In this document: in pieces, positions 1-64,000 of the stretch
Position numbering within the stretch: position 1 is the stretch's first letter
How the letters are laid out: each line of letters begins with the position of its first letter
Assembly (NCBI GenBank): GCA_965204755.1
Contig: OZ242011.1
Location: 992,001-1,056,000, forward strand
Length of the DNA stretch: 64,000 bases
Direction of reading: 5' to 3'
Origin: Candidatus Marinacidobacterium sp.
GTDB lineage: Bacteria; Acidobacteriota; Vicinamibacteria; Marinacidobacterales; Marinacidobacteraceae
Program-made: the position numbers and the translations under genes
The notes under the pieces: generated by a model
Databases searched by the model: none
What the model saw: only the letters and a program-made list of their open reading frames with translations
Told to the model about the DNA's origin: nothing

Positions 1-243
1 CTTGTCGTCCACATCGGTGAAGTTCATCGCCTGCTCCACCCGGTACCCCTTGAACTTCAGGTAGCGGCGGAGGAGGTCCTGGGCGACGAAGGTGCGGAAG
101 TTCCCGATGTGGCCGCGGGCGTACACGGTGAGGCCGCAGGTGTACATGCGGACGCGCGGCGGGTCGCCGGGAACCAGCGGCTCGACCCGGCCGCCGAGCG
201 TGTTTCGCAGGCGGAGCGGACGAATCGGGACGGCGTCTTCCAC
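1..243 (-). CDS. cysS: Cysteinyl-tRNA synthetase, 5' part (runs off window)
   Basis: Manual translation: RMYTCGLTVYARGHIGNFRTFVAQDLLRRYL...MNFTDVDDK (HIGH-like HIGN and TDVDDK motifs). GTG at 243 with GAGGGG upstream. Confidence 0.95.
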   Translation of the reverse strand, partial: MEDAVPIRPLRLRNTLGGRVEPLVPGDPPRVRMYTCGLTVYARGHIGNFRTFVAQDLLRRYLKFKGYRVEQAMNFTDVDDK

Positions 244-282
244 CGCGCGCTTCCCCTCAGCCGGACGCCTTCGACGCGGGCG

Positions 283-2085
283 TCATGCGGTCCGCTTCAG
301 GACGATGAGCGTGAGGTCGTCGGCGAGCGGTCTCGAACCGGCGAAGGCGCGGGCGCGGGAGACCAGTTCGCCGCAGATGTCGCGGGCGCTCTTGTCCCGG
401 GCGGCGTCCAGCGCTTCCACCAACCGTTCTTCCTCGAAGAGTTCCCCTTCCGGCGACTCGGTTTCGCTCAGCCCGTCGGTGAACAGGATGAGCAGGTCGC
501 CGGGTTCGAGCGTGAAGCGTCCGGTTTCGACTTCGATCTCGGGGAACAGGCCGAGCACGGTGGAGCCCCGGTCGAGCCGTTCGACTTTCCCGCCGGAGCG
601 CAGCAGCAGCGGCCGCACATGGCCGGCGTTCAGGTAGTCGAACCGCCCGGTCTCCGGCTCGAAGCGGGCGAGGACCGCGGTCATGTAGCGGTTCTCCGCG
701 GTGTTGTCGTGGAGCAACTGGTTCAGTTCGAGCGCCGCGCCGGCGATCTCGGTGTGGCCGTGGAAGAAGAAGGCGCGCAGCGAGGCCTGGACCGAGGCCA
801 TGATCAGCGCCGGGCCGGGCCCCTTCCCGGCCACATCGGCGATGGTCAGGAAGATGCCGCCGCGCAGGTCGAGGTAATCGTAGTAATCGCCGCCGACGGC
901 CAGGCAGGGGATGTTCACGCCGCCGATGTCCCAGCCGGCGGGACGCGGCGGCCGGTCGGGCAGGAAACGGCTCTGGATGCGCCGCGCCGCTTCGAGTTCC
1001 TTCTCCTTCTCGATGGCGGCGCGGGTCAGCCGCAGACTGTCCACCGCGGCGGCCGCCTGCGCGGCGAGCGAACCGAGGAACGACCGGCTGGCCGGCGAGA
1101 GCGCGGCGTCGTCCACGCTGCCCGCGCCGACGAAAAGCGCGCCCCGGAACGAGCCGCAGGCGAACGGCGCGACCCAGCCGATCTCCAGTTGCGCCAGGCC
1201 GGCGGCGAGGGCGCGGTCCTCCAACTCCGCCACCGGGAGCACCCCGGCGCCCGGGCCGACCCGGGCCGCCGCCCGGAGGAGCGCGCTCCAGTCCTCGTCG
1301 GGCCGCCGCGGCCCGCGGGCGGCGAGCACCCGTCCGCCGGCGACCACCGCGGCGCGGCTCGCCAGCACATGCCCCATCGCGCCGTTCAGCAGCAGGTCCC
1401 AGACGCCGGTCTCGTCGGTCGCGCGGTGGAAGCCGGTGGTCAGGTCCATCAGCGACTGCAACTGATAGACATTCAGCGAGAGCCGGCGGTTCGCCAGCCG
1501 GAGTTCCTCGTCCCGGCGGCAGCCTTCCAGCGCCGCCCCGGCGGCGGCGGCCAGCGCTTCCAGGAAGTCGCTCTTCGAGCCGGCGATCTCCGGGCGGCTC
1601 GCGCCGACGAGGAGCACCCCGAGGAGCCGGTCGTCGAACCGGAGGAGGGCCGCCGCGTCGGCGGAAGCGGTTTCGAGGAGGGAACACCAGGGCGCTTCGG
1701 GCTCGCCGCCGTCCGGAGGGCAGTCGCCGCTCCGGACCACCGCCGCCTCCGGCAGCGCCGCCGGGAGCGCCACCGCGAGTTCGGGCCAGGCCGGGTCGGC
1801 GGCCCCGCGCCGGCCCGCCGGGCGCAGCGCGCCGTTGCCGTCGGGGCGGAGGAGACCGGTCCAGCGGGCGCCGGTCTCGCCGAGCGCCACCAGCAGGATG
1901 AGCGCCGCCACTTCCTCGGCGCGGCGCGGCCGGGTCAGCGCCGCCGCGAAGTCCGTGAAGGCGAGGACTTCGGAGATCCGGCGGCCGGCCTCCGGCCCCA
2001 GTTCGCCCAGGTGCCGGGCGAGCAGGTGCTGGTACCGGGCGCCCGGCGACTCGGGAGCGGCCGCGGCCCCTCCGCCGGCCTTCAC
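283..2085 (-). CDS. PP2C/SpoIIE-family (RsbU-like) serine phosphatase with N-terminal GAF-like regions
   Basis: Motifs VGGDYYD, IADVAGKG, NAGH, FTDGLSE, DDLTL. GTG at 2085 overlaps the upstream stop (GTGA). Confidence 0.9.
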   Translation of the reverse strand: MKAGGGAAAAPESPGARYQHLLARHLGELGPEAGRRISEVLAFTDFAAALTRPRRAEEVAALILLVALGETGARWTGLLRPDGNGALRPAGRRGAADPAWPELAVALPAALPEAAVVRSGDCPPDGGEPEAPWCSLLETASADAAALLRFDDRLLGVLLVGASRPEIAGSKSDFLEALAAAAGAALEGCRRDEELRLANRRLSLNVYQLQSLMDLTTGFHRATDETGVWDLLLNGAMGHVLASRAAVVAGGRVLAARGPRRPDEDWSALLRAAARVGPGAGVLPVAELEDRALAAGLAQLEIGWVAPFACGSFRGALFVGAGSVDDAALSPASRSFLGSLAAQAAAAVDSLRLTRAAIEKEKELEAARRIQSRFLPDRPPRPAGWDIGGVNIPCLAVGGDYYDYLDLRGGIFLTIADVAGKGPGPALIMASVQASLRAFFFHGHTEIAGAALELNQLLHDNTAENRYMTAVLARFEPETGRFDYLNAGHVRPLLLRSGGKVERLDRGSTVLGLFPEIEVETGRFTLEPGDLLILFTDGLSETESPEGELFEEERLVEALDAARDKSARDICGELVSRARAFAGSRPLADDLTLIVLKRTA

Positions 2086-2576
2086 GGCGCGGGAGCGTCG
2101 GCCGAAGCGGCGCCGGCGCCGGGCGGGCGGTTCCGGACGAGCAGCCAACAGCCCACGCCCGGCGCCGGCCGGCGGTGCTCCACCGTGTCCATGAGCCGGC
2201 GCATGAGGTGGACGCCGAGCCCGCCGCGGCGCCGCTCCGCCGCCAGGCGGTCGAGGTCCATGCCGGAGGGCAGGTCGCCCGGCGGCTCGCCCCGGTGTTC
2301 CACCTCGATGGTCAGCGCCCGCTCCTCCCGGCGGAAGCGGAGCAGGACCTCGTGGCCGGGCTCGCCCCGGTAGGCGTGCTGCACCACATTGGTCACCGCC
2401 TCGTCCACGGCGGCGGCGATCTCCTGCGCCGCCACCGCGTCGAATCCGGCGGCGGCGGCCACTCGCCGCGCGGCTTCCCGCGTGAGCGCCAGCGACTCGC
2501 AGACCGCCGGAACCCGGATCTCGAACGAGGGCGGCGGGTCCCCGGCGGGGACCGGGTGGTCCTCGGCGGCGCTCAT
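2082..2576 (-). CDS. Anti-sigma factor kinase (RsbW-like, HATPase_c_2)
   Basis: AVDEAVTNVVQHAY and RRGGLGVHLMRRLMD; lies between the STAS and PP2C genes. Confidence 0.88.
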   Translation of the reverse strand: MSAAEDHPVPAGDPPPSFEIRVPAVCESLALTREAARRVAAAAGFDAVAAQEIAAAVDEAVTNVVQHAYRGEPGHEVLLRFRREERALTIEVEHRGEPPGDLPSGMDLDRLAAERRRGGLGVHLMRRLMDTVEHRRPAPGVGCWLLVRNRPPGAGAASADAPAP

Positions 2577-2586
2577 CGGGCCCCGG

Positions 2587-2961
2587 TCACGAAGGAGGCG
2601 GGCCCGGATCCTCCTCCGGGCCGAAACTGGCGACCGCTTCCGCCTCGCTCGCGAAGGTGCGGCAGAGGCGGTCGAAACCGAGCACCCGGAAGATGTGCGC
2701 GACCGGCCCGGTGAGGTCGGCGGCGCGCATGTCCCCTCCCCGGGAGCGGACTTCCTCGATCAGGCCCATGATCGCGCCGAAACCGGCGCTGGCCACATAG
2801 GACAGGTGGGCGCCGCCGATGACGATCCGCACCTCCCCGGCGGCGACCAGCCGGTTCAGCGCTTCTTCGAAGTCCGCCACCGTGTGGGCGTTCACGAAAC
2901 CCCGGGGCTCGACCACCGCCACCCGGCCCACCCGGCGGACGGTGACTTCGAGGTCGGGCAT
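2587..2961 (-). CDS. Anti-anti-sigma factor (STAS, RsbV/SpoIIAA-like)
   Basis: LSYVASAGFG phosphoacceptor motif, IFRVLGFD, 124 aa. Confidence 0.9.
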   Translation of the reverse strand: MPDLEVTVRRVGRVAVVEPRGFVNAHTVADFEEALNRLVAAGEVRIVIGGAHLSYVASAGFGAIMGLIEEVRSRGGDMRAADLTGPVAHIFRVLGFDRLCRTFASEAEAVASFGPEEDPGPPPS

Positions 2962-9383: not shown

Positions 9384-10532
9384 TCAGCGGGAGGGGGCGG
9401 CGTGGACGAAGGAGATGGCATCGCTCGCGTGGACTACGGCGGCGCCTCCGTCGGCCAGCCGGACCCGGATGCCCCCGTCCCGGGCCAGGCCGTCCGTCCA
9501 CCCTTCCGCCGAGCCGCCCCCGCGCCGCCGGATGCGGCAGCGGACGTCCCGGGCGGTGGGGCTCCGCTCCTCCCACCGGGCGGCGAGCGCCGCCGGGTCG
9601 GCGGCGGCGAGGCCGAAGGCGCGGCGGAACGAGGCGATCAGGGCGCCGGCCAAGCAGGCGGGGTCGGCGGCCTTCGGAAGATGAGCCGGCGGCCTCCGGG
9701 GAGGGGGTTCGCCGGCGCGGGGGTCGAGTTCCACCGGAGTCAGGTTGACGCCGAACCCGACAACAGCCAAGTCGGGGGCGAATTCGGGGGCCGCATCGGG
9801 GGCCGGTTCAGGGGCCGGTTCGGGCGGTGGTTCCGGCGGAGGATCCGGGGCCCCGGTCCCCGACGGGGACTTCCGGAGCAGGCGGGCCGGGCCGGGCCCG
9901 GGGGAGAAGCCGGTCTCGGCGAGGACGCCCGCGAGTTTCCCGCCGTTCCAGTCGAGGTCGTTCGGCCAACGGAGTTCGACGCGGAGCCCGGCGGCCCGCT
10001 CCACGGCTTCCGCGGCGGCCAGTCCGGCGGCGATGGGGAGCAGGGAGAGCCCGGCCGCCGGGGGCGCGGCCACGAGGAGGCTGAGGTAGAAGCCGCCGGG
10101 AGGCGAGACCCAGCGCCGGCCGAACCGGCCCCGGCCGGCGGTCTGCTCGGAGGCGAACGCGACCGCGGCGACCGGAGGGAGCGCCGGCGGCCCTCCGGCG
10201 GCCTCCGCCGCCGGACCGGCGAGGACCCCGGCGGTCCCGTCGGCGGCGACGGCGCGGAGGAGGTCGTTGGTGGAGCCCACCCGGTCGAAGACCCCGACGA
10301 AGGGGACGGCCGCCGGGGCGACCGCCGCGCGGATCGCGTCCGCGACGGCCCGGCCGGGGAGGGAGCCGGGGAGCGAGCCGGGGAGGGAGAGGTCGCCGGA
10401 AGCGCTGACGGATGAATCGTCGGGAAAGCCGGGGGCTCGGACGCTCGCCTCCGGCGGCGCCGGCGGCGGCGTCCCCGGAACCGGCCGCCGCCCGGCGTCC
10501 GGCGGCCGAACGGCCGCGCTCGTTTCGGGCAT
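9384..10532 (-). CDS. birA: Biotin-protein ligase (no obvious HTH)
   Basis: GSTND, QTAGRGRFGRRWVSP, RWPND, KLAGVL, VGFGVN. Confidence 0.9.
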   Translation of the reverse strand: MPETSAAVRPPDAGRRPVPGTPPPAPPEASVRAPGFPDDSSVSASGDLSLPGSLPGSLPGRAVADAIRAAVAPAAVPFVGVFDRVGSTNDLLRAVAADGTAGVLAGPAAEAAGGPPALPPVAAVAFASEQTAGRGRFGRRWVSPPGGFYLSLLVAAPPAAGLSLLPIAAGLAAAEAVERAAGLRVELRWPNDLDWNGGKLAGVLAETGFSPGPGPARLLRKSPSGTGAPDPPPEPPPEPAPEPAPDAAPEFAPDLAVVGFGVNLTPVELDPRAGEPPPRRPPAHLPKAADPACLAGALIASFRRAFGLAAADPAALAARWEERSPTARDVRCRIRRRGGGSAEGWTDGLARDGGIRVRLADGGAAVVHASDAISFVHAAPSR

Positions 10533-22785: not shown

Positions 22786-22789
22786 GTGC

Positions 22790-23440
22790 GACGCCGCTCA
22801 ACAATTGGCGCAGCTGCGGAGGACGGCAACTGGCACGCGCATATGCCCGCCATCTTTGCCGATCACGCCAACAACTCCGAGGTGGCGAAAACGGTCGCCC
22901 GCTGCCTTAGTTCGCAAGTTCGTCCCGGCGCTCTTTTCCCACTTTTTCTCCCGAAGTTGGTCCGCGATCTTCTCCAACTGGTAAGCGGTTCGTCAACGAA
23001 TTTACGAAGGTGAAGTACCGCTGGCGGCGACTTCCGCCCCTCGCCTTCTTCTGGAACTCGGTCTCCTCCCACTCGTCGCAGATGAACCACTGGTGGTTCC
23101 TCGTCAGGCCCCCGCACCGCGGCGGCAACGACGCGCTTAGCTTCGTCTTCCGTCAGGGGGTCACCGTCGTGGACAGGAATACTGCCGCCCTCGATGCCCA
23201 AGTCACAGATCATCCGCTTTTGCAATGTGCCCAATCGCACGGACGGCCTTCCAATCGCACACACCGAGATACCTCGCGCCTTGAAGAAAGGTCGATGGCG
23301 CGAGATCAGGGGATCAGCCGCTCGGCGACGGTACGCATGCGGCTCGAGACAGCGTCTCCTCCCACTCAACGGTCCGATGCAGAGGGTTGTCCGGCGAACG
23401 GTTGGAAGTACGACTCGGAGCGACGAAGTTCGGCTTGCGC
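22790..23440 (-). pseudogene. Possible frameshifted foreign gene remnant
   Basis: Lower GC. Protein-like text switches frames on the minus strand (DPLTEDEAKRVV / NHQWFICDEWEETEFQKK / YQLEKIADQLREKKWEK). No family recognised. Confidence 0.25.
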
Positions 23441-23444
23441 CCGA

Positions 23445-23825: not shown

Positions 23826-23946
23826 GACCGAGAGCCCAGTAGTGCGGGTAGGCGGGCACCGCCCGATCGAGTAACCCGGCGATCGCTTGGCTCCCCTGTC
23901 CCGATCGGAGCCGGGGGGGACTCGGTTTCGGGACGATGGGGATAGC

Positions 23947-41530: not shown

Positions 41531-41854
41531 ATGTTCAGCACTCGGCGGGTCGGTCTCCGGCCTTGGACCCTCTTCCTGCGCGGCGTGGGAAGCCTGATCG
41601 AAATCTGTCCTCCCAAGAGTCGCTACTACGAACTCCTCCCCCCGAGGACTGTCGAGCAAACGTTCGCGGAGTACCGCGCCAACATCGAGCACTACTTGGG
41701 CGCGGCCACCCGCGCGTGGGAGGTGGAGCACCAGGAAGAAGCGCGCGGCGGGGAAGAACCGCCCGGCGGGGAAGAACCGCCCGGCGGGGAAGAACCGCCC
41801 GGCGCGCCGAACGAGTCCGACTCGACGAAGTCCGAAGAAGAAGAAACCGGCTGA
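41531..41854 (+). CDS. Hypothetical 107-aa protein with acidic repeat tail
   Basis: ATG at 41531; ends 24 bp before the MTase; (GGEEPP)x3. Confidence 0.4.
   Translation: MFSTRRVGLRPWTLFLRGVGSLIEICPPKSRYYELLPPRTVEQTFAEYRANIEHYLGAATRAWEVEHQEEARGGEEPPGGEEPPGGEEPPGAPNESDSTKSEEEETG
41746..41803. repeat. 18-bp tandem repeat, 3 copies
   Basis: GGCGGGGAAGAACCGCCC x3. Confidence 0.9.
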
Positions 41855-41878: not shown

Positions 41879-43123
41879 GTGCCCCGCGCCCGCCGCCCTC
41901 CCGAGTACCGGGTGGAATCGGTCCGGGGCGCGAAGAATGTCGCCTCGCTCTATCTCCGGGAGATCGATCTGGAGAACAGCGTTCGTTTCGGGCTGCCGGA
42001 AGTGGACGACCGCTACCACTGCTGGCGGGTTCCGCTCAAGTCGAACGGTCACGCGGTCGGCGAAGTCGTCGTCGACGCGAAGACCAGCCTCGTGGTCGAG
42101 GAAAAGACCACCACGCGGGAAGTCCTCGAATCCCGCATCCTCGGCCGCGCCGCGCCCCGGGCGCCGAAGACGGCAAAGAAGAACGCCGCGCCGCGGATCT
42201 CCACGGTCCGGAACACGATCGGCATCGGGGATTCCGAGCAACTCCTCCTCGAAACGCCGGCGGAGTCGGTGGACCTGGTCTTCACCTCCCCGCCGTATTT
42301 CAACGCCCGGCCGGAATACGCCGACTACATCGAGTACGAGGAATACCTGCTGAAGATGAAGCGGGTCCTGAGCCAGTGCCACCGCGCGCTGGGCGAAGGA
42401 CGCTTCTTCGTCCTCAATGTATCGCCCGTCCTCGTCCGCCGATCCAGCCGCTCCGAAGCGTCCCGGCGCCTGGCCGTCCCCTTCGATTTCCACCGGCTGT
42501 TCATCGAGACCGGTTTCGTCTTCATGGACGACATCATCTGGCAGAAACCCGAAGGCGCCGGCTGGGCCACCGGCCGGGGCCGCCGGTTCGCCGCCGACCG
42601 CAACCCGCTCCAATACAAGCCCGTTCCGGTGACGGAGTATGTCTTGGTCTATCGCAAGAAGACGGACCGCTTGATCGACTGGAACATCCGGAAGCATCCG
42701 GACCAGGAGGCCGTCCGGCAGTCCAAGATCGGCGACGGTTACGAAGTAACCAATATCTGGAAGATCCACCCGGCCCACTCGCCGCACCATCCGGCAGTCT
42801 TTCCGCAGGAACTCGCCGCGAAGGTGATCACTTACTACAGTTTCCGCAACGATGTGGTGCTGGACCCCTTCGGCGGCATCGGCACGACGGCCGAAGCGGC
42901 GCACCGCAACGGACGCCGGTTCGTCCACTACGAGATCTCCGACGAGTACGCGGAAGTGTTGCGGAACTCCATCTCCTCCTGGTATTCCGAACCGCTGGAC
43001 TCCATCAACTGGGTCAACACCGAAGCGCCCGACGATGCTCCGTTCCGACTGTTCGTCGACCGCGCGCCGCAGGAGAACGACACTCGGCCCTTCGTGGAAG
43101 GCGTCGCAAGTAGAGAGGCTTGA
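41879..43123 (+). CDS. Class-beta amino DNA methyltransferase (probably N4-cytosine)
   Basis: TSPPY catalytic motif precedes HPAVFP and VLDPFGGIGTT; IIWQK. Confidence 0.9.
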   Translation: MPRARRPPEYRVESVRGAKNVASLYLREIDLENSVRFGLPEVDDRYHCWRVPLKSNGHAVGEVVVDAKTSLVVEEKTTTREVLESRILGRAAPRAPKTAKKNAAPRISTVRNTIGIGDSEQLLLETPAESVDLVFTSPPYFNARPEYADYIEYEEYLLKMKRVLSQCHRALGEGRFFVLNVSPVLVRRSSRSEASRRLAVPFDFHRLFIETGFVFMDDIIWQKPEGAGWATGRGRRFAADRNPLQYKPVPVTEYVLVYRKKTDRLIDWNIRKHPDQEAVRQSKIGDGYEVTNIWKIHPAHSPHHPAVFPQELAAKVITYYSFRNDVVLDPFGGIGTTAEAAHRNGRRFVHYEISDEYAEVLRNSISSWYSEPLDSINWVNTEAPDDAPFRLFVDRAPQENDTRPFVEGVASREA

Positions 43124-43130: not shown

Positions 43131-44582
43131 ATGAGACACGCGTGGACCCGCGCCCTGCTCGGGGTGGCGGCGGTTTGGGTGGCAGGCTGCTCGCCGCCGA
43201 ACGGGGACCTGGTGGCGCCGGCCACCTTGGAAGCCGCCGCGGAGGCCGCGGCGGCGGAAGTTCGGGAGGCGGTCGAGGCGGACGGGAGGGGCGGGGCGGC
43301 GCTCGGGATCTTCGTGGGCGGGGAGGCGGTGCTGGTCGAGGGGTTCGGGCTGGCGGACATGGAGAGCGGGGAGGCGGCGGGCCCGGAGCACTTGTTCCGC
43401 ATCGGCTCCATCACGAAACCGGTGACGGCGATGGCGATGTTGGCGTTGATCGAGGAGGGGCGGGCGCGGCGCGGCGATCCGGTGCGGCGGTTCGTGCCGG
43501 AGTTGTCGCGGGTGGAGAACCCGCTCGATTGGGCGCCGGGGCCGACGATCTTCCAACTGGCGACGATGACCGGGGGGTTGGCGCGGGAACCGGCGAACTT
43601 GCCGACTTACCTCGTGGGCGCTCCGGAGGAATGGCTTTCCGTCGTGTTCCGGGCGTTGGAGGAGACTCGGTTCGAGTACGAGCCGGGCACGAAGTACCGG
43701 TACTCGAACATCGGGTATGCAGTGCTCGGCGGCGCGGTGGAGCGGGCGGCGGAGCAGCCGTTCATGGAGTTCGTTTCGGAGCGGCTGCTGCGGCCGCTGG
43801 GGATGGAGGAGACGATCTTCTACCCGACGGAAGCGCTTTCGGGGCGGATCGCCGCCGGGTACCAGGTGGAGGACGACGGCACGGTGGATGCCGAGACTCC
43901 GGCGCGGGAACACGGGGGACGCGGTTACAAGGTGCCGAACGGGGCGCTCTACTCGACGGTCGCCGACTTGGGCGTGTTCCTGCGGTTTCTGGTCGGCGTG
44001 GAGGCGGCGGCGTTCGATGCGGTGATCCCTTCGGGAACGCGGCAGGACAACCTCACCCGGACCTTCGCCGCCGGCGACCTGGCGAGCGGCTACGGCTTCG
44101 GGTTCATGTCCCGCCGCCTGGGGGACGCCGCCGGCGGGGAGTTCACCGCCTACGGCCACGGCGGCAGCGTCGCCGGCTACCGCGCCGCCGCGTGGATCGA
44201 ACCGGAGACCGGGGCCGCGGTCGTCGTCCTGCGGAATGTCGGCGGGGACTCGGTGAGCGTCGGTGACCTCGCGTCGTCGGCGCTCGGGCGCGTGGTGGCG
44301 TCCGTGCGACACGGTGATCCCCCCATCCGTGCGAACGGCGTCCGTCCCCCTCACCCCGCGTTCGGACAAACAAGGCTGTACACTCATCCGCCCCTACGGC
44401 GCTCAACTCACCCACCTCCCGCGTCACACATCTTGCTGCATCGGTTGGCGGGCACGCACTCCACGCCCTTCCTCCAGCTCGCGAATACGCCCGTCCCGGT
44501 CTTGTCGGCAGATAGACCTATCGGGAGTCGGCCGCAATACCGGCCCACTGGGCGTTTCTCGACCTTCACCACCTACGACTGA
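43131..44582 (+). CDS. Serine hydrolase (beta-lactamase class C-like) lipoprotein with atypical C-terminal tail
   Basis: Lipobox VAGC, GSITK (SxxK), YSN, HGG. Confidence 0.87.
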   Translation: MRHAWTRALLGVAAVWVAGCSPPNGDLVAPATLEAAAEAAAAEVREAVEADGRGGAALGIFVGGEAVLVEGFGLADMESGEAAGPEHLFRIGSITKPVTAMAMLALIEEGRARRGDPVRRFVPELSRVENPLDWAPGPTIFQLATMTGGLAREPANLPTYLVGAPEEWLSVVFRALEETRFEYEPGTKYRYSNIGYAVLGGAVERAAEQPFMEFVSERLLRPLGMEETIFYPTEALSGRIAAGYQVEDDGTVDAETPAREHGGRGYKVPNGALYSTVADLGVFLRFLVGVEAAAFDAVIPSGTRQDNLTRTFAAGDLASGYGFGFMSRRLGDAAGGEFTAYGHGGSVAGYRAAAWIEPETGAAVVVLRNVGGDSVSVGDLASSALGRVVASVRHGDPPIRANGVRPPHPAFGQTRLYTHPPLRRSTHPPPASHILLHRLAGTHSTPFLQLANTPVPVLSADRPIGSRPQYRPTGRFSTFTTYD

Positions 44583-44586
44583 GAAC

Positions 44587-46674
44587 ATGCAGGCGATACA
44601 AGCGCCCGTCACGGAGTTCATTCGTCAACGAGGACAGTTCATCGTTCCCGTGTTCCAACGGGACTACACTTGGACTGCCGAGAGGGAGTGTTCCCAGTTG
44701 TGGAACGATCTCATCTTCGCCGCCTCTCTACCGGAGAAGAGCTGCCACTTCCTCGGTTCGATTGTCCACAAGAAGGTTGGCGGTGGTGTCACCCTGCCCC
44801 AGTACTTGATCATTGATGGTCAACAACGTCTCGCGACGCTGACGCTTCTTCTTATCGCCGTTCGGGACCACATCGCCAAGACTGGCGTTACACCCGAGGC
44901 GCTGCCTTCCGTACCAGAACTCGACGACTACTATCTCTTGAACACTCACAAGAGCGGCCGGTCCCGTTACCGGATGCTTCTTCGCCGACAAGATGCCGAG
45001 GCTCTCATCCGTTTGGTTGACGGACACGACGAACCTGATGGTTCCGAACTGGTCTCGCGAAACTACGAGTGGTTCCGCGCTCGGGTCGAGACAGCCGATC
45101 TTGATGTACTTTGGCACGGGCTCAGTCGACTCGTCATTGTTGATGTTTCGCTGCACGACGACGACGATGCGCAATCGATCTACGAAAGCTTGAACGCCAC
45201 CGGCATAAGGCTTCGTGTTTCGGATCTAGTCCGCAACTATCTGCTCATGAATCTGCCGCTGGACCGACAGACTGCTCTCTACGAGACACATTGGAGCGAG
45301 GTCGAGGCTCTCTTCCGCGGGAATCTTGACGACTTTGATCGTTTCGTACGAGACTGGCTGGACCTCAGAACACGAGCAGCGTTTCGGACACCATGGCCCG
45401 AAGTCTACACTCGATTCCGACATCACTGGCACGATAGACGGGACGCTAATCTCACTGTCGACCTTGACGACATTCGAAAGGCGGCGCGAAGCAACGCAGC
45501 GTTTCGATTCGGTACCAACGCACCTCAGGTTCACCGTGAGCACTATTCGTTCATCAGGGCCGCTGCACGGGTCGCACCCGCGATCACCGTTATGCGCCTC
45601 CATGAATCTCTGAGACGCCACGACGGCATCTCCGAAAGAGCCTATCAGGAGGCCTTGATGTTGATCGAGAGCTTTCTCATGAGGCGAGCCGTGTGCGGCG
45701 AGCCGACCAATTCCTATGAGAAAGCCTTTTGTTGGTTGTCATCGCAACTTCGGGATGACAACGCGTTGATCGATCTGAAGACGTCCTTTCAGCGTCGGCC
45801 TTGGGGATACCACTTCCCTTCCGACGCTGAGTTCGAAAGCGCCCTTCTTGAGAATCCACTGGCGAAGAATCGGTTCATCAAGACACTGCTTGAACGCTTG
45901 GAGACCCACGAGAATAGGGCCCGCCCGGACACGAGTCGTTACACCGTGGAGCACATCCTGCCCCAGAACCCACAACCGCGTCGAGGATGGTCGGGAATTT
46001 CGCCCGAACGGTTCCCGGAGGTGCAAGAACAGTGGGTACACAGACTGGGCAACCTTACGCTCACGGCGTACAACTCCCGGTACTCTGACCATCCGTTCGA
46101 GGAGAAGAAAACGATGGCCCGCGGCTTCTTGGAGAGCGCCTTGAGCATCAACAGGTATGTCAACGAGCAGACTGTGTGGACGGAAGTAGAGATCGAAGAG
46201 CGCACGAGACTACTTGCTGCGCGCGCCTTGAAGGTGTGGCCGGCGCTTGATGTTGATGGAGCCCTTGTGGAGCGTGCGGAATTCCGTGACTTGTGTTCTG
46301 GACCGCACGCCAGAACAAAGATTTTCGCTTCGCCTGGTGTTCGCGTACTCTTCGAGCGGTACAGGAGCGCTATCTGCGGTGTCGGTTCCGACATCGTTGA
46401 GCTGACGGACGGCAAGGCGGCGAGTTATCACCGAGATGGTCGCTACTTCGCGGAGATCGTTCCCAGGACGCACGATTTGCGCGTGTTGCTACGCCTTGAT
46501 CGAGACCGTGCTGAGAAGACGGCTCCGCACTGGGTATGGGACTCCTCAAAGATCCAACACGCCCGGTATGTGCAGCGGATGCCTACCCGTTTCTGGCATT
46601 TCCCTCACGAGGAGGAATCCGAATTCAAGATCGCGTTGAGGCTGATTGCGATGGCGTATTCGTCATTGGACTAG
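44587..46674 (+). CDS. GmrSD-family type IV restriction enzyme (DUF262 + DUF1524/HNH + DUF5655-like tail)
   Basis: PVFQRDYTW, IDGQQRL, ESLNATG, EHILPQ, LGNLTLT..NS..S..PFEEKK; lower GC than the flanks. Confidence 0.92.
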   Translation: MQAIQAPVTEFIRQRGQFIVPVFQRDYTWTAERECSQLWNDLIFAASLPEKSCHFLGSIVHKKVGGGVTLPQYLIIDGQQRLATLTLLLIAVRDHIAKTGVTPEALPSVPELDDYYLLNTHKSGRSRYRMLLRRQDAEALIRLVDGHDEPDGSELVSRNYEWFRARVETADLDVLWHGLSRLVIVDVSLHDDDDAQSIYESLNATGIRLRVSDLVRNYLLMNLPLDRQTALYETHWSEVEALFRGNLDDFDRFVRDWLDLRTRAAFRTPWPEVYTRFRHHWHDRRDANLTVDLDDIRKAARSNAAFRFGTNAPQVHREHYSFIRAAARVAPAITVMRLHESLRRHDGISERAYQEALMLIESFLMRRAVCGEPTNSYEKAFCWLSSQLRDDNALIDLKTSFQRRPWGYHFPSDAEFESALLENPLAKNRFIKTLLERLETHENRARPDTSRYTVEHILPQNPQPRRGWSGISPERFPEVQEQWVHRLGNLTLTAYNSRYSDHPFEEKKTMARGFLESALSINRYVNEQTVWTEVEIEERTRLLAARALKVWPALDVDGALVERAEFRDLCSGPHARTKIFASPGVRVLFERYRSAICGVGSDIVELTDGKAASYHRDGRYFAEIVPRTHDLRVLLRLDRDRAEKTAPHWVWDSSKIQHARYVQRMPTRFWHFPHEEESEFKIALRLIAMAYSSLD

Positions 46675-56672: not shown

Positions 56673-57761
56673 ATGACCCGAACCGTGGAACGCTCGCTCG
56701 ACCCGGCGGCGCGCTTTCGCTTCATCGACCTCTTCGCCGGCATCGGCGGCATGCGCCGCGGCTTCGAAACGGCAGGCGGCCGGTGCGTGTTCACGAGCGA
56801 GTGGAACCGTTTCGCCCAGCAGACCTACGCCGCCAACCACGATTGCGACCACCCGCTCGTCGGTGACATCCGCGCCGTGGACAGCGAGGACATTCCCCCG
56901 CACGACCTTCTGTTGGCCGGCTTTCCGTGCCAACCCTTCTCCATCGCGGGCGTCTCGAAGAAGAACGCCCTGAACCGCCCTCACGGTTTCCGCTGCGAAG
57001 TCCAGGGAACACTCTTCTTCGAGATCGCCCGCATCCTTCGACACCACCGTCCGGCCGCATTCCTTCTCGAGAATGTCAAGAATCTCCTGAACCACGACCG
57101 CGGCCGCACCTTCGAGATCATCAAGACGACACTCGAAAAGGACTTGGGCTACACCGTCTCCTGCCGGGTCATCGACGCCCGCTCGTTCGTGCCCCAGCAC
57201 CGCGAACGAGTCTTCATCGCCGGATTCCGTGAGCCGACCCCCTTCTCGCTGGACGAGATGGCATTGCCTCCCCCGAACCGCGGTCCCCGCCTCCGGGAAG
57301 TGCTTCATCCGGAAGCCGGCCTCGAACCCGCGGAGCCTCCGTACACGGTCGGGCCCAAGGCACGCGTCTCGTCGCGGTACACGCTGACACCGCACCTCTG
57401 GACCTACCTCCAACAGTACGCCGAAAAGCACCGAAGCAAGGGGAACGGCTTCGGCTACGGCCTGGTCGGTCGCGGAGATGTCAGCCGGACGCTCTCCGCG
57501 CGTTACTACAAGGATGGCTCGGAAATCCTGGTCCGCCGGCCCGGTCCCGCCGCCCCGCGTCGCCTCACCCCCAGAGAGTGCGCTCGGCTGATGGGCTTCG
57601 ACCGGCCAGGGCGACCTCCTTTCGAGATCCCGGTCTCTGACACCCAAGCGTATCGCCAGTTCGGAAACGCCGTCGTCGTACCGGTAGTCGAGGCCGTGGC
57701 GCACCAAATGGTTCCACACCTCACCGGCATCGTCGCCGGGGCGGCGCGGCGTGTCGCCTGA
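56673..57761 (+). CDS. dcm: DNA cytosine-5 methyltransferase, Dcm/M.EcoRII-like
   Basis: [55 protein letters not shown]. Confidence 0.95.
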
Positions 57762-57810: not shown

Positions 57811-59082
57811 ATGTCCAACGCGCATCGTCTCCGCCGATGGATCGAGTCCGCCGCCACGGCACGGATCATCTACGCCAAGAGACTCTCCGGGAACGACACC
57901 TTGGCAAACGGCGCCAATCAGGCCGGACTCTATGTGAGCAAACCAGTCGCCTTCGACATCGCGCCATCCGTCGACACCGTGGACAAGGAGAACCCCAAGT
58001 CGTGGTTTCCGCTGACCATCGTGTCGCACGGCCTGCCTCAACGCGCTGTCGTGCTCACTTACTACAACAGCAAACGTATTTCCGAATCCAGGGACAGCGA
58101 CAAGGAGACGGAGGAGGAGGGGAAGAAGAAGACGAAGAGAGACGAGGTGCGAATAACCCGTTTCGGCGGCAGGAACTCGCCGCTTCTGAACCCGGACAGT
58201 ACCGGGGCATTGGCCATCTTTGCCTTTTTCCAATCCGGATCCGACCTGCGCTCCGAGGTTTGGGTCTGCCACCGTGAGGCCGAGGAGGAAATCGCCGAGG
58301 AGTGGCTCGGCATGGTTGATCCGGGGCGCACCGTTCTGTTCTACCCGGAGTCCGGGCTCCCGGTCATCCCTCAGCGAGTTGGAAAGTGCCGATTCTCGTC
58401 GGGCGAACTACCCCTTGCCTGGCGCGAGGCCTATCCGTCCGGCGAGGACATAGTCGCCAAGACGCTGGAGATTCTCCCGACCACGGCAGGTGACGCCGAC
58501 AAGCGCCTGCTGCGACGGCGACAGTGCGAGTTGGAGATCTTCGAGAGCATTCAGGAGGCGATCGAACTTCCGAGGGTGAAAGCCGGCTTCGACGGCTTGG
58601 GGCCGTTCCTGCAATGCGCGATGAGCATCGTCAACAGGCGCAAGTCCCGCAGCGGTCGGTCGCTCGAACTCCAAGTGCGGCAGATCCTGCTGGAGAGCGG
58701 ATTCGTTCAGGGTGAGCACTTCGACCACGATGTGATCTCCGAGGGTTCGAGCCGTCCCGACTTCGTGTTCCCGTCGCAAGCCGCGTACTCGAATCCTCGA
58801 TACGCGGAAAGCGATCTGCGGATGCTGGCGGTAAAGACTACCTGTCGCGATCGCTGGCGCCAGATCTTGACCGAAGCTCACCGCATCTCGTGCAAGCATC
58901 TGCTCACGCTGCAACGGGGCGTCAGCGAGAATCAATTCCGACAGATTCAGGAGGCGCGCGTCCGCCTCGTTGTGCCCGAGGATCTTCACAAGAGATATCT
59001 CGCCTCGATACGGCCTCACCTCCTGACGCTCGAAAAGTTTTTGAAGTCTTTGGGCTCGCTCCTCAATATCCCCGCTCGTTAG
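57811..59082 (+). CDS. EcoRII-like type IIE restriction endonuclease
   Basis: N-terminal KRLSGND...NQAGLY effector domain; NRRKSRSGRSLE, RPDFVFP, KTTCRDRWRQILTE. Confidence 0.92.
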   Translation: MSNAHRLRRWIESAATARIIYAKRLSGNDTLANGANQAGLYVSKPVAFDIAPSVDTVDKENPKSWFPLTIVSHGLPQRAVVLTYYNSKRISESRDSDKETEEEGKKKTKRDEVRITRFGGRNSPLLNPDSTGALAIFAFFQSGSDLRSEVWVCHREAEEEIAEEWLGMVDPGRTVLFYPESGLPVIPQRVGKCRFSSGELPLAWREAYPSGEDIVAKTLEILPTTAGDADKRLLRRRQCELEIFESIQEAIELPRVKAGFDGLGPFLQCAMSIVNRRKSRSGRSLELQVRQILLESGFVQGEHFDHDVISEGSSRPDFVFPSQAAYSNPRYAESDLRMLAVKTTCRDRWRQILTEAHRISCKHLLTLQRGVSENQFRQIQEARVRLVVPEDLHKRYLASIRPHLLTLEKFLKSLGSLLNIPAR

Positions 59083-59176: not shown

Positions 59177-61354
59177 TCACCGGCCGCACCCTTGACGATG
59201 ACCGGCCGGAAGATCGAAGGTAAACCGCGCTCCCCGGTTCCCGGGTTCGACTGACATCTTCCCGTCGTAAGCGGCGACGACTTCCCGGGCGACCGTCAGC
59301 CCCATTCCGATCCCTCCCGGTCTCGTCGTCACGCCCGGCAGGAACACTTCGTCCTCATCCTCGGCGGCGATGCCGGGACCGGAGTCTTCGACTCGAACCC
59401 TGACCCGGCCGGTCGGGCCGCGCGATTCGACGACGAAGCCGATCTCCCTCGGCCGGTCGTCGACGCCGCTCAACCAGTAGAGCGCGTTCGTAATCAGGTT
59501 CAGCAGTACGGTATCCAGTTCACCCGGATCGACCGCCACCACCGTACGGGAATCCGGGACGCTGCACTGAACCTCGAAGCGGCGAATACGCCCGCGCTCC
59601 AGGTCGAGGCACCGGTGGATGCACTCCTCGACTACCGCCGTTCGCTGCGCGCGACGGTACGATCGGCTGGCCAAGGGGGACAGTCCGTCCGACAGGGTTT
59701 CGAGCGCCATCGCGGCGTGGTCGGCGCGGGCGCGTTCGGTCTCCAGCCGCGGGTGCGGTTCGCGATCCAGGTGCTCCTTCATCGAGATCAGGAACCGGCC
59801 GATCGAAGTCGTGCGATTCCGGATCTCGTGCACCAGCATCTGCGCGATCGTCCCTACGGTCGCCAACTGGCTGTAGCGGACGAACCGGTCCCGGATCGCC
59901 GCCAAACTCTCCTCGGCCTGTTCGGCGTAACCCTCGACGACCGGCAGGACGGCGTTCGCGCCTGCCCCCTCCCGCGCGGCGGTCCGCGCGCGCTCCAGCA
60001 TGGCCCCGGGGGACAGGTCCGCGAACAGCGAGGTCATCGCCTTCCCCCGCTGCGGGTTCGGGCGGTCTCGATCTCGCTGCGCTTCCAGGGCCTTGACGAT
60101 CTCCTCGAGAAGTCTGCTGAAGTCCCTCAGCGCCGGCCCGTCCGTGAGCCGCTCCCGGTCGCTCGTGTCGCGGATCTCGGGATTGCTCCGTGACGAAATC
60201 GAGACGAAGCCGACGATCTGGTTCGTGCTCAGCCGCGTCCCGACCCTTCCGAGGCGCCGACGATCGAGTCCGAGCCAGTCTCTCGCCGCATCGGACTTCG
60301 GCAACACGAGGACGCCGTCGCGATAGACGGAAATCCCCCGGTGGGCGCGAATGGCGTTTCGGATGGCGCTTCGCTTCAGTTCGAACCGGTGGGTGGTCTC
60401 CCCGGCGCCGTCCCGATCGAGGTCCCAAGCCCGGATCTCGAAGTCGAAAGGGCCGCATCGCGGCGAATCGGCAGCGACGGGCGCCCGCGACGCTTCGTTA
60501 CCGTCCAGGACCTGCAGCCGACTCAGGTTGACCGCGCATTCCCTCGGGGCGCCGTCTTCCGCCAGCGGAGCGAACCGATACGACGCGGCGATGGCGCCGT
60601 CGGCATTCACGGAGCCCGCGATGCGGTATTTCGGCTTCGCCAGGAACTCGTCCGGCTCGATTCGAATCGCCTCGGCATCCCCGGCGCCGGGCGGCGACAG
60701 GAAGAGATGGAATTCCCCGGCGTCGGCGAACGGCGGGACGAGCCGCGACAGGTCGGCGCGAAGGTCCTCGATCCGCTCCGCGGTCCACTCCTGTTTCAAG
60801 TCGCTCACGCGGATTCTCGTTCCCGGCCCCCGAAGACCGTCCTCGCGCGGCCTCAACTCGACGGAGCCCCGCGCCGAATCGTCCGTCTTCGCCAGCGACG
60901 GCCAGGAGACCCGCGCCTCCAGGCACGGCTCGCCCGGCGCCCGCGTCCACATGCGGAACTCGTCACCGAGGCGAGCGGCGGACAGCCGACCGATTCCCTT
61001 CTCCCCCGAAGCGCGCCGCCGACCGGAGACCCCGCCGATCACCGGATTCCGGGCCTTGTGGGGCGTGGCCACGACGCACCAGACCTCCTCGACGGTCTCG
61101 CGGCTCATTCCGCAACCGTCATCTTCGACCTCCAAGTACTCGGGGATCGGCGACCCTCCGCCGAAACGCACGGTGACCCTGCGCGCCCCGGCGTCGTACG
61201 AGTTCTTCACCAGTTCCATCACAGCAACGACATCGTCGGTGACGAGGTCCGCACCCAGCGCGGCGAAGACGCGCGGATGGAACCGGAAGGGAATCTTCGC
61301 GGGCGGCGCGGCGCCCGCCGGCGCCGCGGGCGCGGCCGGTGCGGCCGTCGCCAT
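59177..61354 (-). CDS. MORC/MutL-like GHKL ATPase fused to a histidine kinase
   Basis: N-terminal ELVKNSYDA, DDGCGM, GEKGIGRL, GTRI; C-terminal HEIRN, NLITNA, DSGPGI, GMGL. Confidence 0.88.
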   Translation of the reverse strand: MATAAPAAPAAPAGAAPPAKIPFRFHPRVFAALGADLVTDDVVAVMELVKNSYDAGARRVTVRFGGGSPIPEYLEVEDDGCGMSRETVEEVWCVVATPHKARNPVIGGVSGRRRASGEKGIGRLSAARLGDEFRMWTRAPGEPCLEARVSWPSLAKTDDSARGSVELRPREDGLRGPGTRIRVSDLKQEWTAERIEDLRADLSRLVPPFADAGEFHLFLSPPGAGDAEAIRIEPDEFLAKPKYRIAGSVNADGAIAASYRFAPLAEDGAPRECAVNLSRLQVLDGNEASRAPVAADSPRCGPFDFEIRAWDLDRDGAGETTHRFELKRSAIRNAIRAHRGISVYRDGVLVLPKSDAARDWLGLDRRRLGRVGTRLSTNQIVGFVSISSRSNPEIRDTSDRERLTDGPALRDFSRLLEEIVKALEAQRDRDRPNPQRGKAMTSLFADLSPGAMLERARTAAREGAGANAVLPVVEGYAEQAEESLAAIRDRFVRYSQLATVGTIAQMLVHEIRNRTTSIGRFLISMKEHLDREPHPRLETERARADHAAMALETLSDGLSPLASRSYRRAQRTAVVEECIHRCLDLERGRIRRFEVQCSVPDSRTVVAVDPGELDTVLLNLITNALYWLSGVDDRPREIGFVVESRGPTGRVRVRVEDSGPGIAAEDEDEVFLPGVTTRPGGIGMGLTVAREVVAAYDGKMSVEPGNRGARFTFDLPAGHRQGCGR

Positions 61355-61356
61355 GG

Positions 61357-61848
61357 TCAGCGGCGGGCGGCCGAACGGCGCCGACCGTCCGGGCCCGGTA
61401 TCTCGAGGAACGGTAGGCTCGACCGGACGAAGTCGGCCGCTTCGCGGCACGCCTCGTCGAGCGCGCGGTCGCGGTCGAGGCCGGCGCGGCGGAAACGGCA
61501 TTCCCAGATGGTCAGCACCCGCCATCCGAGGCTCCGCAGCCGGGACACGGCGCGGGCGTCCCGCTCCGCGTTGCGTTCCAGTTTCTCCTTCCACCAGTCG
61601 CGGCGGGTGTCCGGGATCGAAGACAACTCGCAGCCGTGGAGATGCCAGAAGCACCCGTGGACGAAGACGGCGGAGCGATGCTTCGGGAACACGAAGTCGG
61701 GCGTGCCCGGAAGGTCCCGGCGGTGCAGCCGGTAGCGCAGTCCTTGGGCGAACAGGCGCTTTCGCACCGCGACCTCGATCCGGGAATTGCGCGACCGCAC
61801 CGCGGACATCATCCGACTTCTGGTCCGCGCATCCACGGTGTCCGTCAC
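61357..61848 (-). CDS. vsr: Very-short-patch repair endonuclease
   Basis: RSRMMSAVR, LPGTPD, FVHGCFWH, RNAERD, GWRVLTIWEC. Confidence 0.95.
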   Translation of the reverse strand: MTDTVDARTRSRMMSAVRSRNSRIEVAVRKRLFAQGLRYRLHRRDLPGTPDFVFPKHRSAVFVHGCFWHLHGCELSSIPDTRRDWWKEKLERNAERDARAVSRLRSLGWRVLTIWECRFRRAGLDRDRALDEACREAADFVRSSLPFLEIPGPDGRRRSAARR

Positions 61849-63200: not shown

Positions 63201-63261
63201 CCACTCCCACGGCGGCTATCGTTCTCTCCCACCCGGCTACACCCCGAGGCAGAGTCCACAC

Positions 63262-63588
63262 ATGAATCCCACGCAACAGACCACGCCGCCGATCGTCTGG
63301 GACGGCTCTACCTTCCACATCAACCTGAAGGCCGCGAACATCGAGGCGAAGTGGACGCCGGATGTCACCTTCGTCATCCGGGTCCGCGAAGTCGGCAAGG
63401 AATGGAGCGTCGGCTTCGAGACGCCGCTCACCGGCTGCAGCCTGAACGGCCTCGCCCCGGACACCGACTACGAGATGGAAGTGCGGACGAAGCAGGGCTC
63501 GAAACTGGGTTCGCCCACGAAGGTCCGCATCCGCCCCGACTCGAGCGGCGTGTTCACGCAGGACATCGCCCCGGAGCGCACCCAGTAG
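63262..63588 (+). CDS. Small fibronectin-type-III-like protein
   Basis: W...F.IRVRE....W........LNGLAPDTDYEMEVR FN3 pattern. Confidence 0.6.
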   Translation: MNPTQQTTPPIVWDGSTFHINLKAANIEAKWTPDVTFVIRVREVGKEWSVGFETPLTGCSLNGLAPDTDYEMEVRTKQGSKLGSPTKVRIRPDSSGVFTQDIAPERTQ

Positions 63589-63608
63589 CGGATCACACGC
63601 CGCCGCGC

Positions 63609-63629
63609 CGCCGGGCAAGACGCCCGGCG
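63609..63629. terminator. GC hairpin between convergent genes
   Basis: CGCCGGGC-aagac-GCCCGGCG; no U-tract. Confidence 0.35.
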
Positions 63630-64000
63630 TCAACTCACATTGAAGCGGACGACGAGGACATCGCCGTCCTGGACCGGGTAGTCCTTTCCTTCCAGCCGCA
63701 ACGCGCCGGCGCGGCGGCAGGCGTCCCAGGAACCGTGTTCCACCAGCGTGTCGTAGTGGACGACTTCGGCGCGGATGAAGCCGCGCTCCATATCGGAATG
63801 GATGGTTCCGGCGGCTTCCTGCGCCCGCGTGTTGCGGCGGATGAGCCAGGCGCGGGACTCGGTGTCGCCGGCGGTGTAGAAGACGACGCGGTCCATCAAC
63901 TCGAAGATGGCGCGCACCACGCGGTCGGCGGCGCCGGATTCGACGCCGAGGTCGGCGCGGAAGGCAGCGGCGTCCGCCTCCGGGAGTTCGGCGATCTCGG
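63630..64000 (-). CDS. ychF: YchF/Obg-like ATPase, 3' part
   Basis: FYTAG..ESRAW, AAGTIHSDMERGFIRAEV, RLEGKDYPVQDGD. Confidence 0.95.
   Translation of the reverse strand, partial: EIAELPEADAAAFRADLGVESGAADRVVRAIFELMDRVVFYTAGDTESRAWLIRRNTRAQEAAGTIHSDMERGFIRAEVVHYDTLVEHGSWDACRRAGALRLEGKDYPVQDGDVLVVRFNVS

Follow-up and report, generated by a model that had tools for sequence, protein, structure and literature searches.

The palindromes AGCT and ACGT are nearly absent from a 64,000-nucleotide stretch of the chromosome of Candidatus Marinacidobacterium sp., and from the chromosome as a whole. Throughout, "the window" denotes this whole stretch (bases 992,001-1,056,000 of G000:C1, one contig of 3.98 Mb; 71.3% G+C), and G000 is our label for the genome that carries it. 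The near-absence of the two words is an extreme new instance of a known phenomenon, recognition-site avoidance, and we favor, at a probability of roughly 65%, an explanation by restriction-type selection exerted by long-resident systems of the restriction-modification (R-M) type. Two particular gene cassettes, System A and System B, may be the agents, a proposal that we hold tentatively and at somewhat less than even odds.

Depletion in the window and genome-wide

An exact count gave nine AGCT sites in the window (at about 22812, 23139, 23944, 44476, 44740, 45187, 45670, 46400 and 58875) and five ACGT sites (9544, 41660, 44826, 45781 and 58074), where dinucleotide-preserving shuffles (n = 100 for each word) predicted 137.4 ± 11.8 and 183.1 ± 14.6, respectively. 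For either word, the observed count was exceeded by all 100 shuffles, while two palindromes of the same composition were plentiful, with 363 copies of GATC and 495 of TCGA. The original prediction, made from the sequence of the window alone, had placed all nine AGCT sites exactly; for ACGT it had listed three positions (44826, 45781 and 58074), all of which were indeed found, but had missed 9544 and 41660. Its statement that all sites fall in lower-GC segments held for 12 of the 14 (500-bp GC of 0.555-0.693) and failed for these same two, the site at 9544 lying in a core gene of 79.6% GC and that at 41660 in DNA of 70.5% GC.

Upon extending the count to the whole genome with the Markov correction that the prediction had called for, we observed 265 ACGT against 7147 expected under a maximal-order model (observed/expected ratio, O/E, of 0.037) and 332 AGCT against 7446 (O/E 0.045). 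Both short palindromes are therefore significantly under-represented relative to Markov expectation, and they have the two lowest O/E values of all 256 tetramers, the third lowest being CTAG at 0.13, whereas the same-composition palindromes are normal (GATC, 0.98; TCGA, 1.21). Among the 398 bins of 10 kb, 266 lack AGCT and likewise 266 lack ACGT. The remaining sites are clumped, with 55% of them within the top 10% of the bins, and the mean local GC around them is 0.659 for AGCT and 0.647 for ACGT, compared to 0.716 at random positions genome-wide. The hexamer GTCGAC is depleted 5-fold in the same genome (416 observed, 2076 expected).

Codon choice around the two words

To relate the words to genes, we used a simple codon-score caller, which yielded 2774 genes covering 88% of the genome and missed the most foreign genes, so that the class of uncalled DNA mixes intergenic sequence with young islands. 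Genes with a G+C content at third codon positions (GC3) of at least 0.85, which make up 76.6% of the genome, hold only 53 AGCT of 5815 expected (O/E 0.009) and 71 ACGT of 5292 (0.013). In genes with GC3 below 0.80 the depletion is 7- to 9-fold (AGCT 56/390, O/E 0.14; ACGT 58/537, O/E 0.11), and 55 of the 101 low-GC3 genes that were expected to carry at least five sites have none; in uncalled or intergenic DNA we counted 209/725 AGCT (0.29) and 108/738 ACGT (0.15). Overall, O/E declines stepwise with GC3, from 0.139 at 0.70-0.75 to 0.007 at 0.90 and above. Hence, the density of the words follows how native the codon usage of a gene looks, and the words can rank how long a piece of DNA has been resident, as had been proposed for the ranking of insertion ages.

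Codon-pair choice around both words is almost deterministic in the 2231 core genes (about 1 million codons) that we analyzed. Asp preceding GTN is encoded by GAT in 99.2% of cases versus 7.8% elsewhere, Glu preceding CTN by GAA in 99.8% versus 31%, and Leu following NAG by TTG in 98.6% versus 3.4%, bearing out the substitutions that had been picked out by eye in the window. More generally, Asp, Asn, His and Tyr take their T-ending codon in 98.7-99.4% of cases when they precede Val, compared to 4-11% elsewhere. Ser preceding T is AGC in 0.2% of cases (26.8% elsewhere) and AGT in 24.1% (1.7% elsewhere), while A-ending codons account for 0.3% of the codons preceding GCT versus 3.1% preceding GCC, and for 0.7% preceding CGT versus 4.1% preceding CGC. 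Expressed as odds, these shifts amount to a factor of about 200 to 2000.

In the main frame, the most frequent replacements (GAT-GTN, GAA-CTN, NAG-TTG and AGT-T) are C-to-T products, as deamination of 5-methylcytosine (m5C) would generate them; they are, however, also the only silent escapes from the words in those contexts and hence do not discriminate between mutation and selection. Thr preceding T behaves differently from a deamination outcome: ACG falls to 0.3% from 39%, and its share is taken by ACC and ACT at their usual ratio, whereas ACA, the deamination product, reaches only 1.0% versus 0.6% elsewhere. The rise of ACT in this context is a general effect on T-ending codons preceding T, present in every codon box. 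Resolved by codon frame, core genes contain 12/1499, 29/7051 and 9/157 AGCT (observed/expected) and 14/2097, 38/7435 and 19/122 ACGT. The depletion thus spans all three frames, including the one that offers no silent C-to-T change, so that a synonymous escape requires another substitution: the arrangements xxA-GCT (9/157) and xxA-CGT (19/122) are depleted 6- to 17-fold though a C-to-T change there alters the protein. This depletion speaks for selection on the word itself. The allowed synonymous codons keep their usual balance around the words, which fits an old selection on the word rather than one mutational path. Reading such a path from codon usage was tried and abandoned, given that the contexts of Thr, Ser, Ala and Arg have reached equilibrium, that T-ending codons preceding T are raised everywhere, and that no footprint of a path is left.

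Surviving sites

The remaining words mostly mark recently acquired or constrained DNA. The largest cluster is the single ribosomal RNA (rRNA) operon, with 25 AGCT and 6 ACGT, 31 sites in total. Iteron-like repeats carry another 70 of the 332 AGCT (21% of all) in nine intergenic loci (G000:C1 357894-358245, 756031-756433, 1207930-1208352, 1659926-1660364, 2045498-2045920, 2895445-2895816, 2970770-2971137, 3119128-3119630 and 3494174-3494710), none of which lies inside the window and which have no flanking gene in common. Their 15-nt unit, GAATTGTGTATAGST, recurs at a spacing of mostly about 20 bp (20-41 bp; 30 bp in two loci), and each locus consists of two direct arrays of 4-9 copies around a non-homologous, G+C-rich center of 137-219 bp, a layout that we take to resemble iteron or centromere-like protein-binding arrays. 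Exact copies of the unit number 91 in G000 and 0 in 27 other genomes of the family. At the position of the word, 104 repeat copies read AGCT (70), AGGT (25), AGCC (6) or AGGC (3), so that none of the 34 AGCT-less copies carries AGTT or AACT.

A further 15 large clusters contain site-bearing open reading frames (ORFs) with Pfam matches to Eco57I-type methylases, DUF1156, PIN, AAA_15/21, PD-(D/E)XK, GmrSD-Schlafen and Cas1/Cas3, together with many site-bearing ORFs that have no Pfam match. The genome also holds a CRISPR (clustered regularly interspaced short palindromic repeat) array at G000:C1:3176417-3177000; this small array, in which a repeat of 37 nt alternates with about 8-9 spacers, adjoins Cas3, Cas1 and a GSU0054-family gene (cas genes at ~3.169-3.176 Mb).

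Spread among relatives

Relatives were sampled in 20-kb pieces, with 20-100 kb read per genome. AGCT is depleted only in the genus of the window, and ACGT in three neighboring genera. Pooled samples of G001, from the same genus, gave 13/94 AGCT and 9/93 ACGT (observed/expected); these pools include islands, and a core sample of the same genome gave 2/31 and 0/18. G005 (genus g5) had 258/299 AGCT and 8/103 ACGT, and G007 (genus g7) had 106/105 and 10/60. All 16 sampled genomes of genus g2 were undepleted (O/E 0.47-1.04 for AGCT and 0.9-1.4 for ACGT), and genera g3, g4 and g6 were near normal, as were 15 genomes sampled from the order's two other families. By comparison, low values of CTAG and GTCGAC extend across the family, the latter being low in all sampled genera.

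A FastTree phylogeny of four proteins (1897 columns; 17 genomes, with eleven genomes of the family left out; midpoint-rooted, with no outgroup) placed g1, g7 and g5 as successive neighbors between (g4, g6) and g2, the order of g5 and g7 being unsupported (0.34). The purge is young and lineage-specific. The methylmalonyl-CoA mutases of G000 and G001 are only 79% identical, which means that even "the same genus" is old and that silent sites have had time to equilibrate. This spread with kinship fits old, vertically kept, methylase-linked cassettes, in line with the long-acting, word-specific pressure on two 4-bp palindromes that the original prediction had put forward.

Candidate agents

The methylase load of G000 is very high for a 4 Mb genome, with 6 C5 cytosine methylase genes (PF00145), 26 matches to PF01555, 14 to PF02384 and 18 to PF07669 (the last two overlapping) and one clear D12 methylase; G001 (22 PF01555 matches) and G007 (15) are similar. 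Many of these genes lie in low-GC islands with GmrSD, AAA_15/21 and PD-(D/E)XK genes. The genome has at least four genes for the very-short-patch repair endonuclease Vsr. Two PF01555 genes, at 2,357,113 and 490,694, were discarded as agents upon finding them in many undepleted genomes.

Two cassettes of the kind listed in PADLOC as candidate system PDC-M33 (a C5 methylase, a GHKL ATPase, two uncharacterized proteins and Vsr) are our main suspects; they are paralogous, and their putative target words are proposed from co-occurrence. System A, at about 1.259-1.264 Mb of G000, is suspected for AGCT. Its methylase (1,262,789-1,263,769) is present in 2 of 55 genomes of the order, namely G000 and G001 (73% identity), and is the only C5 methylase that both depleted genomes share at high identity; the order-level tallies include G033, an unpublished genome without a match to either cassette methylase, which enters into none of the other results. 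The locus is syntenic between G000 and G001, with all partners 54-74% identical, and in G001 it is followed by a Vsr gene and a D12 methylase. System A matches PDC-M33A, B and C with E values of 5.3e-93, 2.5e-40 and 9.9e-23. Its large protein is predicted to adopt a GHKL (Bergerat) ATPase fold: an AlphaFold model (mean confidence score, pLDDT, of 76.4) retrieved Hsp90/TRAP1 and topoisomerase VI-B with Foldseek at E values of 7e-9 to 4e-7 and a probability of 1.00, with TM-scores of only 0.2-0.5, and the alignment conserves two motifs that are presumably the N-box and the G-box.

For ACGT, the suspect is System B, located at about 1.516-1.5215 Mb. It comprises proteins of 545, 329 and 240 aa, a 444-aa C5 methylase (1,519,737-1,521,071) and Vsr. 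Comparison of the loci in G000 and G005 gave identities of 53, 45, 59 and 72%, and the order-level search found the methylase in these two genomes at 74%; G005 has no other C5 methylase. The System B ATPase was additionally found in G007 (53%), on a contig end. The large protein is homologous to that of System A (hhalign, 94%) and matches PDC-M33 weakly (E 4e-6), while the 329-aa protein has no match to M33B. The arrangement methylase - ATPase - B - C - Vsr recurs unchanged across G001, G005, G312, G403 and G435. The cassette identities match the level seen in housekeeping proteins (79% and 72% for methylmalonyl-CoA mutase), as expected for vertical descent, and within the 17-kb System B locus of G000 the cassette genes, low in GC, are free of both AGCT and ACGT, which marks them as old residents. 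The candidate cassettes are hence long resident, and a young EcoRII island, described below, has had no effect on its presumed target CCWGG. An internal positive control is provided by GTCGAC, for which the genome encodes a restriction enzyme of the BbrUII/HgiDII family beside a C5 methylase (G000:C1:2385000-2404000).

The window itself holds an alternative or additional candidate for ACGT, an orphan beta-class DNA methylase on the plus strand (41879..43123; Pfam PF01555, E 5.7e-43) whose gene carries 0 AGCT and 0 ACGT. Judging from its TSPPY motif and its best solved relatives, 2zie and M.PvuII, it is probably of the N4-cytosine type. Homologues occur in G001 (80% identity, at the syntenic position) and G007 (59%), G005 has a fragment, and 24 other genomes of the family yielded none; ACGT depletion shows the same distribution. 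No nuclease gene neighbors it. The ACGT at 41660..41663 lies directly upstream, within a low-complexity ORF of 107 codons that is unlikely to represent a gene.

Several observations weigh against the cassettes, or against R-M-type selection more widely. A nuclease was found by neither sequence nor fold searches: the A, B and C proteins have no Pfam or NCBIfam match to one, and the 297-aa B protein of System A, which the fold search covered, gave no match at E ≤ 0.001. Full homologous cassettes, with methylases 53-61% identical, occur in four undepleted Acidobacteriota genomes (G312, G403, G435 and G203), and an Acidimicrobiia contig with a homologous cassette has normal ACGT (28/29); either specificity differs at that distance, or these systems are recent, or the genes are not the cause. 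G127 likewise carries a 66% homologue of the window methylase and is undepleted. The independent events behind the co-occurrence number no more than two or three within the family, and the ACGT pattern is matched as well by the window methylase as by System B. G001 is strongly depleted in ACGT though its System B locus (G001:C1:243000-260000) is now divergent (methylase 43%, ATPase 26%), with a DDE transposase inserted before the methylase and nine ACGT, which reads as a cassette swap at a fixed chromosomal site. Moreover, for both the ATPase and the Vsr of System B in G000, the alignment to the counterparts in G005 and G001 is split between two reading frames. These apparent frameshifts, at about 4082-4360 and 9074-9508 within G000:C1:1512000-1529000, one of them in a run of proline codons, may represent gene decay, in which case the restriction arm may be dead in G000, or else long-read assembly indels. 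Finally, Rusinov et al. 2015 (PMC4687349) report that avoidance accompanies Type II systems of the orthodox kind, whereas complex systems show none.

Wider searches yielded little further resolution. A phylum sample of 400 genomes for each of three methylases, in which the 4-5 best candidates per genome were scored, gave 2, 2 and 5 carriers, and none of the five well-tested ones (G312, G403, G435, G203 and G127) was depleted; G307, a 38%-GC genome poor in many palindromes, was set aside. Homologues of the System B methylase number 3336 proteins at E ≤ 1e-30, with names uninformative on specificity, and a scan of genome contigs gave only two loci, a Vicinamibacteria record (71% identical) and the Acidimicrobiia contig. 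For the System A methylase, metagenome contigs offered one 30% relative only, which is uninformative. No 6-mer emerged whose depletion is confined to cassette carriers. In the literature, we found no experimental study of PDC-M33 or DUF6339, and no publication in a search combining Vicinamibacteria with methyltransferase or restriction-modification. Phage genes in G000, sought for a test of active restriction, gave no HK97 capsid or TerL_ATPase match, and a 28-nt part of one CRISPR spacer, the one spacer searched, had no exact match in viral contigs.

Other features of the window

The window sites outside the methylase region fall in four places. The ACGT at 9544..9547, the only window site in high-GC core DNA (500-bp GC of 0.796), lies in a biotin/lipoate ligase-family gene (9384-10532, minus strand). 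Three AGCT (22812, 23139 and 23944) lie in a 63%-GC stretch without family match (22786..23947), between an SNO gene and a gene for a 1350-aa protein; its ORFs at 22863-23369 and 23460-23945 have no Pfam match. The 1350-aa protein (23947-27999, minus strand) has no Pfam match at E ≤ 1e-5 either, and its gene adjoins one for an AAA_14/DUF4143 ATPase. Third, a GmrSD-type (type IV, modification-dependent) restriction nuclease is encoded at 44263..46674 on the plus strand (Pfam GmrSD_N and GmrSD_C; PADLOC Orf5 / mREase_IV); at 57.9% GC and with 5 AGCT and 2 ACGT, compared to 8.9 of each predicted by composition, its island is the youngest-looking DNA of the window.

The fourth place is a module of EcoRII, Dcm and Vsr type (56685-61812). 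A Dcm-like C5 cytosine methylase (56685..57761, plus strand; PF00145, E 6.6e-80; 415 bits to NCBIfam PRK10458, under the 710-bit cut-off) is followed by an EcoRII-type restriction nuclease (57811..59082, plus strand) with both Pfam domains, EcoRII-N and EcoRII-C (E 1.7e-32 and 2.2e-54), and a PADLOC REase_II match (E 4.4e-69). The nuclease gene carries the AGCT at 58875 and the ACGT at 58074. Downstream, a Vsr endonuclease gene (61357..61812, minus strand; PF03852, E 9.7e-27) is adjoined by a gene for a 725-aa protein with two GHKL ATPase domains (59177..61354, minus strand), HATPase_c_3 at the N terminus and a histidine-kinase-type domain at the C terminus, which weakly resembles restriction enzymes of the BbrUII/HgiDII family (E 2.1e-18). 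The Dcm-like methylase is the likely partner of the EcoRII-type nuclease, with CCWGG as the target assumed from family membership. CCWGG is common genome-wide (CCAGG 6754/7204 and CCTGG 6343/6779 observed/expected; O/E 0.94), as the prediction had stated. Because the island is low in GC (0.631) and bears sites (one of each word versus 8.1 of each expected), near-equal-scoring methylases are scattered among relatives, and CCWGG is undepleted, the module appears to be a recent arrival unrelated to the purge of AGCT and ACGT, which agrees with the earlier remark on Vsr repair or a recent Dcm. As a separate observation, CCAGG recurs every 21 bp (29820, 29841, 29862 and 29883) in a 21-bp tandem repeat at 29778-29925, inside a gene (29617-30408) with a weak DUF7310 coiled-coil match.

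Discussion

In the explanation that we favor, R-M-type defense systems recognizing AGCT and ACGT would have been resident in the chromosome for a very long time, and each unmethylated or half-methylated site would have carried an occasional risk of self-cutting. Over genus-scale time, every site that could harmlessly be removed would have been removed by whichever substitution was at hand, leaving unchangeable DNA such as rRNA, a young AGCT-bearing repeat family, and recent arrivals, the defense islands; newly arrived DNA is itself already word-poor, as expected if restriction filters what comes in. If restriction is active, the surviving sites would need to be methylated, as 31 of them persist in the single rRNA operon. 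According to passages of Rusinov et al. 2015 (PMC4687349), site avoidance tracks the residence time of the system. A further suggestion, which we regard as rather doubtful, is that the five-gene cassettes constitute a restriction-system class of their own, directed at 4-bp words and having either leaky protection by methylation or an aggressive ATPase-driven nuclease, which a host could keep only by forbidding the word. If so, the family tree would show three stages (not started, ACGT only, and ACGT plus AGCT), and at loci with a swapped or broken cassette the footprint would have outlasted its cause.

The alternative that survives best, although we consider it unlikely, is a fossil footprint: orthodox AluI-like and MaeII-like enzymes would have been lost, the cassettes would be bystanders, the window methylase would be a leftover half, and the words would now be slowly returning. 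The window methylase, retained in G001, G007 and partly in G005 with no nuclease at its side, suits this account, as do the homologous cassettes elsewhere that occur without depletion, and traces of lost systems are documented in passages of Rusinov et al. (PMC4687349). No orthodox small Type II nuclease for either word was recognized among ~40 C5-methylase neighbors and the window genes, a scan narrow enough that an orthodox enzyme could have been missed. The pooled samples of G001 are also less depleted (0.10-0.14) than the whole of G000 (about 0.04), but these pools include islands, and the core sample of G001 is nearly word-free. Furthermore, core genes of G000 still show a depletion of about 100-fold that gives no hint of relaxing, and the genes of low GC3 are depleted as well, which is easier to explain by a barrier that is still acting.

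Mutational decay, by which spontaneous or methylase-catalyzed deamination of m5C would have turned the words into AGTT/AACT and ATGT/ACAT without any selection on the word, we hold to be very unlikely, and the original prediction of deamination as the driver was not upheld. The genome has its six C5 methylases, such enzymes can themselves deaminate their target sites under a shortage of the methyl donor, and the Vsr gene beside System B may be frameshifted in G000. The Thr context and the repeat copies, neither of which shows a deamination product in excess, and the depleted xxA frames, in which deamination would alter the protein, nevertheless speak against it. Odds shifts of 200- to 2000-fold would require an equally large site-specific increase in mutation rate, whereas the O/E of heavily methylated CpG in vertebrates goes down only to about 0.2. 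Vsr repair genes are present in both suspect cassettes; G005, with an intact Vsr beside its methylase, is as depleted in ACGT as G000; and the candidate methylase of the window looks N4-cytosine-type. The case resembles CpG-type depletion in having central dinucleotides that m5C methylation could target and in the C-to-T nature of its most frequent replacements, but it is far stronger and extends to positions where C-to-T is not silent.

Least likely of all is that the words are harmful for a reason other than R-M, such as a DNA- or RNA-level process, DNA structure or biased Vsr repair. Such a cause would find a parallel in the A-clade pandoraviruses, which lost AGCT and for which Poirot et al. 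(bioRxiv 10.1101/712018) found no explanatory methylase or nuclease, and it could draw on the unproven status of the agent in G000 and on the Vsr genes there; it is opposed by the loss of two palindromes at two times, in lineages that differ by methylase-linked cassettes, by the exceptional methylase richness of the genome, by the match of GTCGAC depletion to an encoded enzyme family, by the normal GATC and TCGA, and, for a purely messenger-RNA-level cause, by the depletion outside called genes. Vsr-biased repair was rejected by reasoning only: repair of the Vsr type restores C and so raises the methylase's own target, and we could derive neither word as a single T-product of another palindromic site.

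Selection by resident R-M-type systems therefore remains our preferred explanation, and it has precedents. Avoidance of Type II R-M sites in host genomes has reportedly been described by Gelfand and Koonin (1997) and by Rocha et al. (2001). As set out in passages of PMC4687349, short palindromes are under-represented relative to Markov expectation, as they are here, the strength of avoidance grows with residence, and traces can outlive the system. The present case differs in its extreme magnitude, with a core O/E of about 0.01 for two 4-mers and codon pairs near-totally rewritten, and in its cognate systems, which are only candidates: chromosomal, syntenic between species, compositionally settled, and built as multi-gene GHKL-ATPase cassettes rather than orthodox two-gene systems. 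GHKL ATPases encoded with cytosine methylases and Vsr are described as R-M components in passages of Iyer, Abhiman & Aravind 2008 (PMC2292703), and the System A protein, with its methylase and Vsr neighborhood, resembles the MORC/paraMORC ATPases of the R-M operons treated there. Compared to those operons, the cassettes have no helicase and no recognizable nuclease; the likeness consists of the GHKL fold and the neighborhood.

The A-clade pandoraviruses are alike in that AGCT was eliminated in one clade while sister clades stayed normal, with varied replacements and with ACGT and GATC serving as same-composition controls, as portions of the preprint (bioRxiv 10.1101/712018) report. There, a eukaryotic giant virus lost AGCT only and has no methylase or nuclease candidate; here, a bacterium with dozens of methylase genes lost two words, with survivors in rRNA, repeats and islands. 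The enterobacterial EcoRII-Dcm-Vsr module has its counterpart in the window, which differs in lying on a low-GC, site-bearing island and in leaving its presumed target undepleted.

Restriction-site avoidance in bacteria is usually mild, whereas here it is about 100-fold in core genes. Relatives with no, one or both purges form a natural series for following the speed and routes of word removal and the persistence of its footprint, and the words give an inexpensive clock, internal to these genomes, for DNA acquired horizontally. The pattern also connects a phenotype that can be tested with an uncharacterized, widespread methylase-GHKL-Vsr cassette of the PDC-M33 type. Should the cassettes be the agents, the unexplained AGCT-free pandoraviruses would gain a candidate enzyme type to look for.

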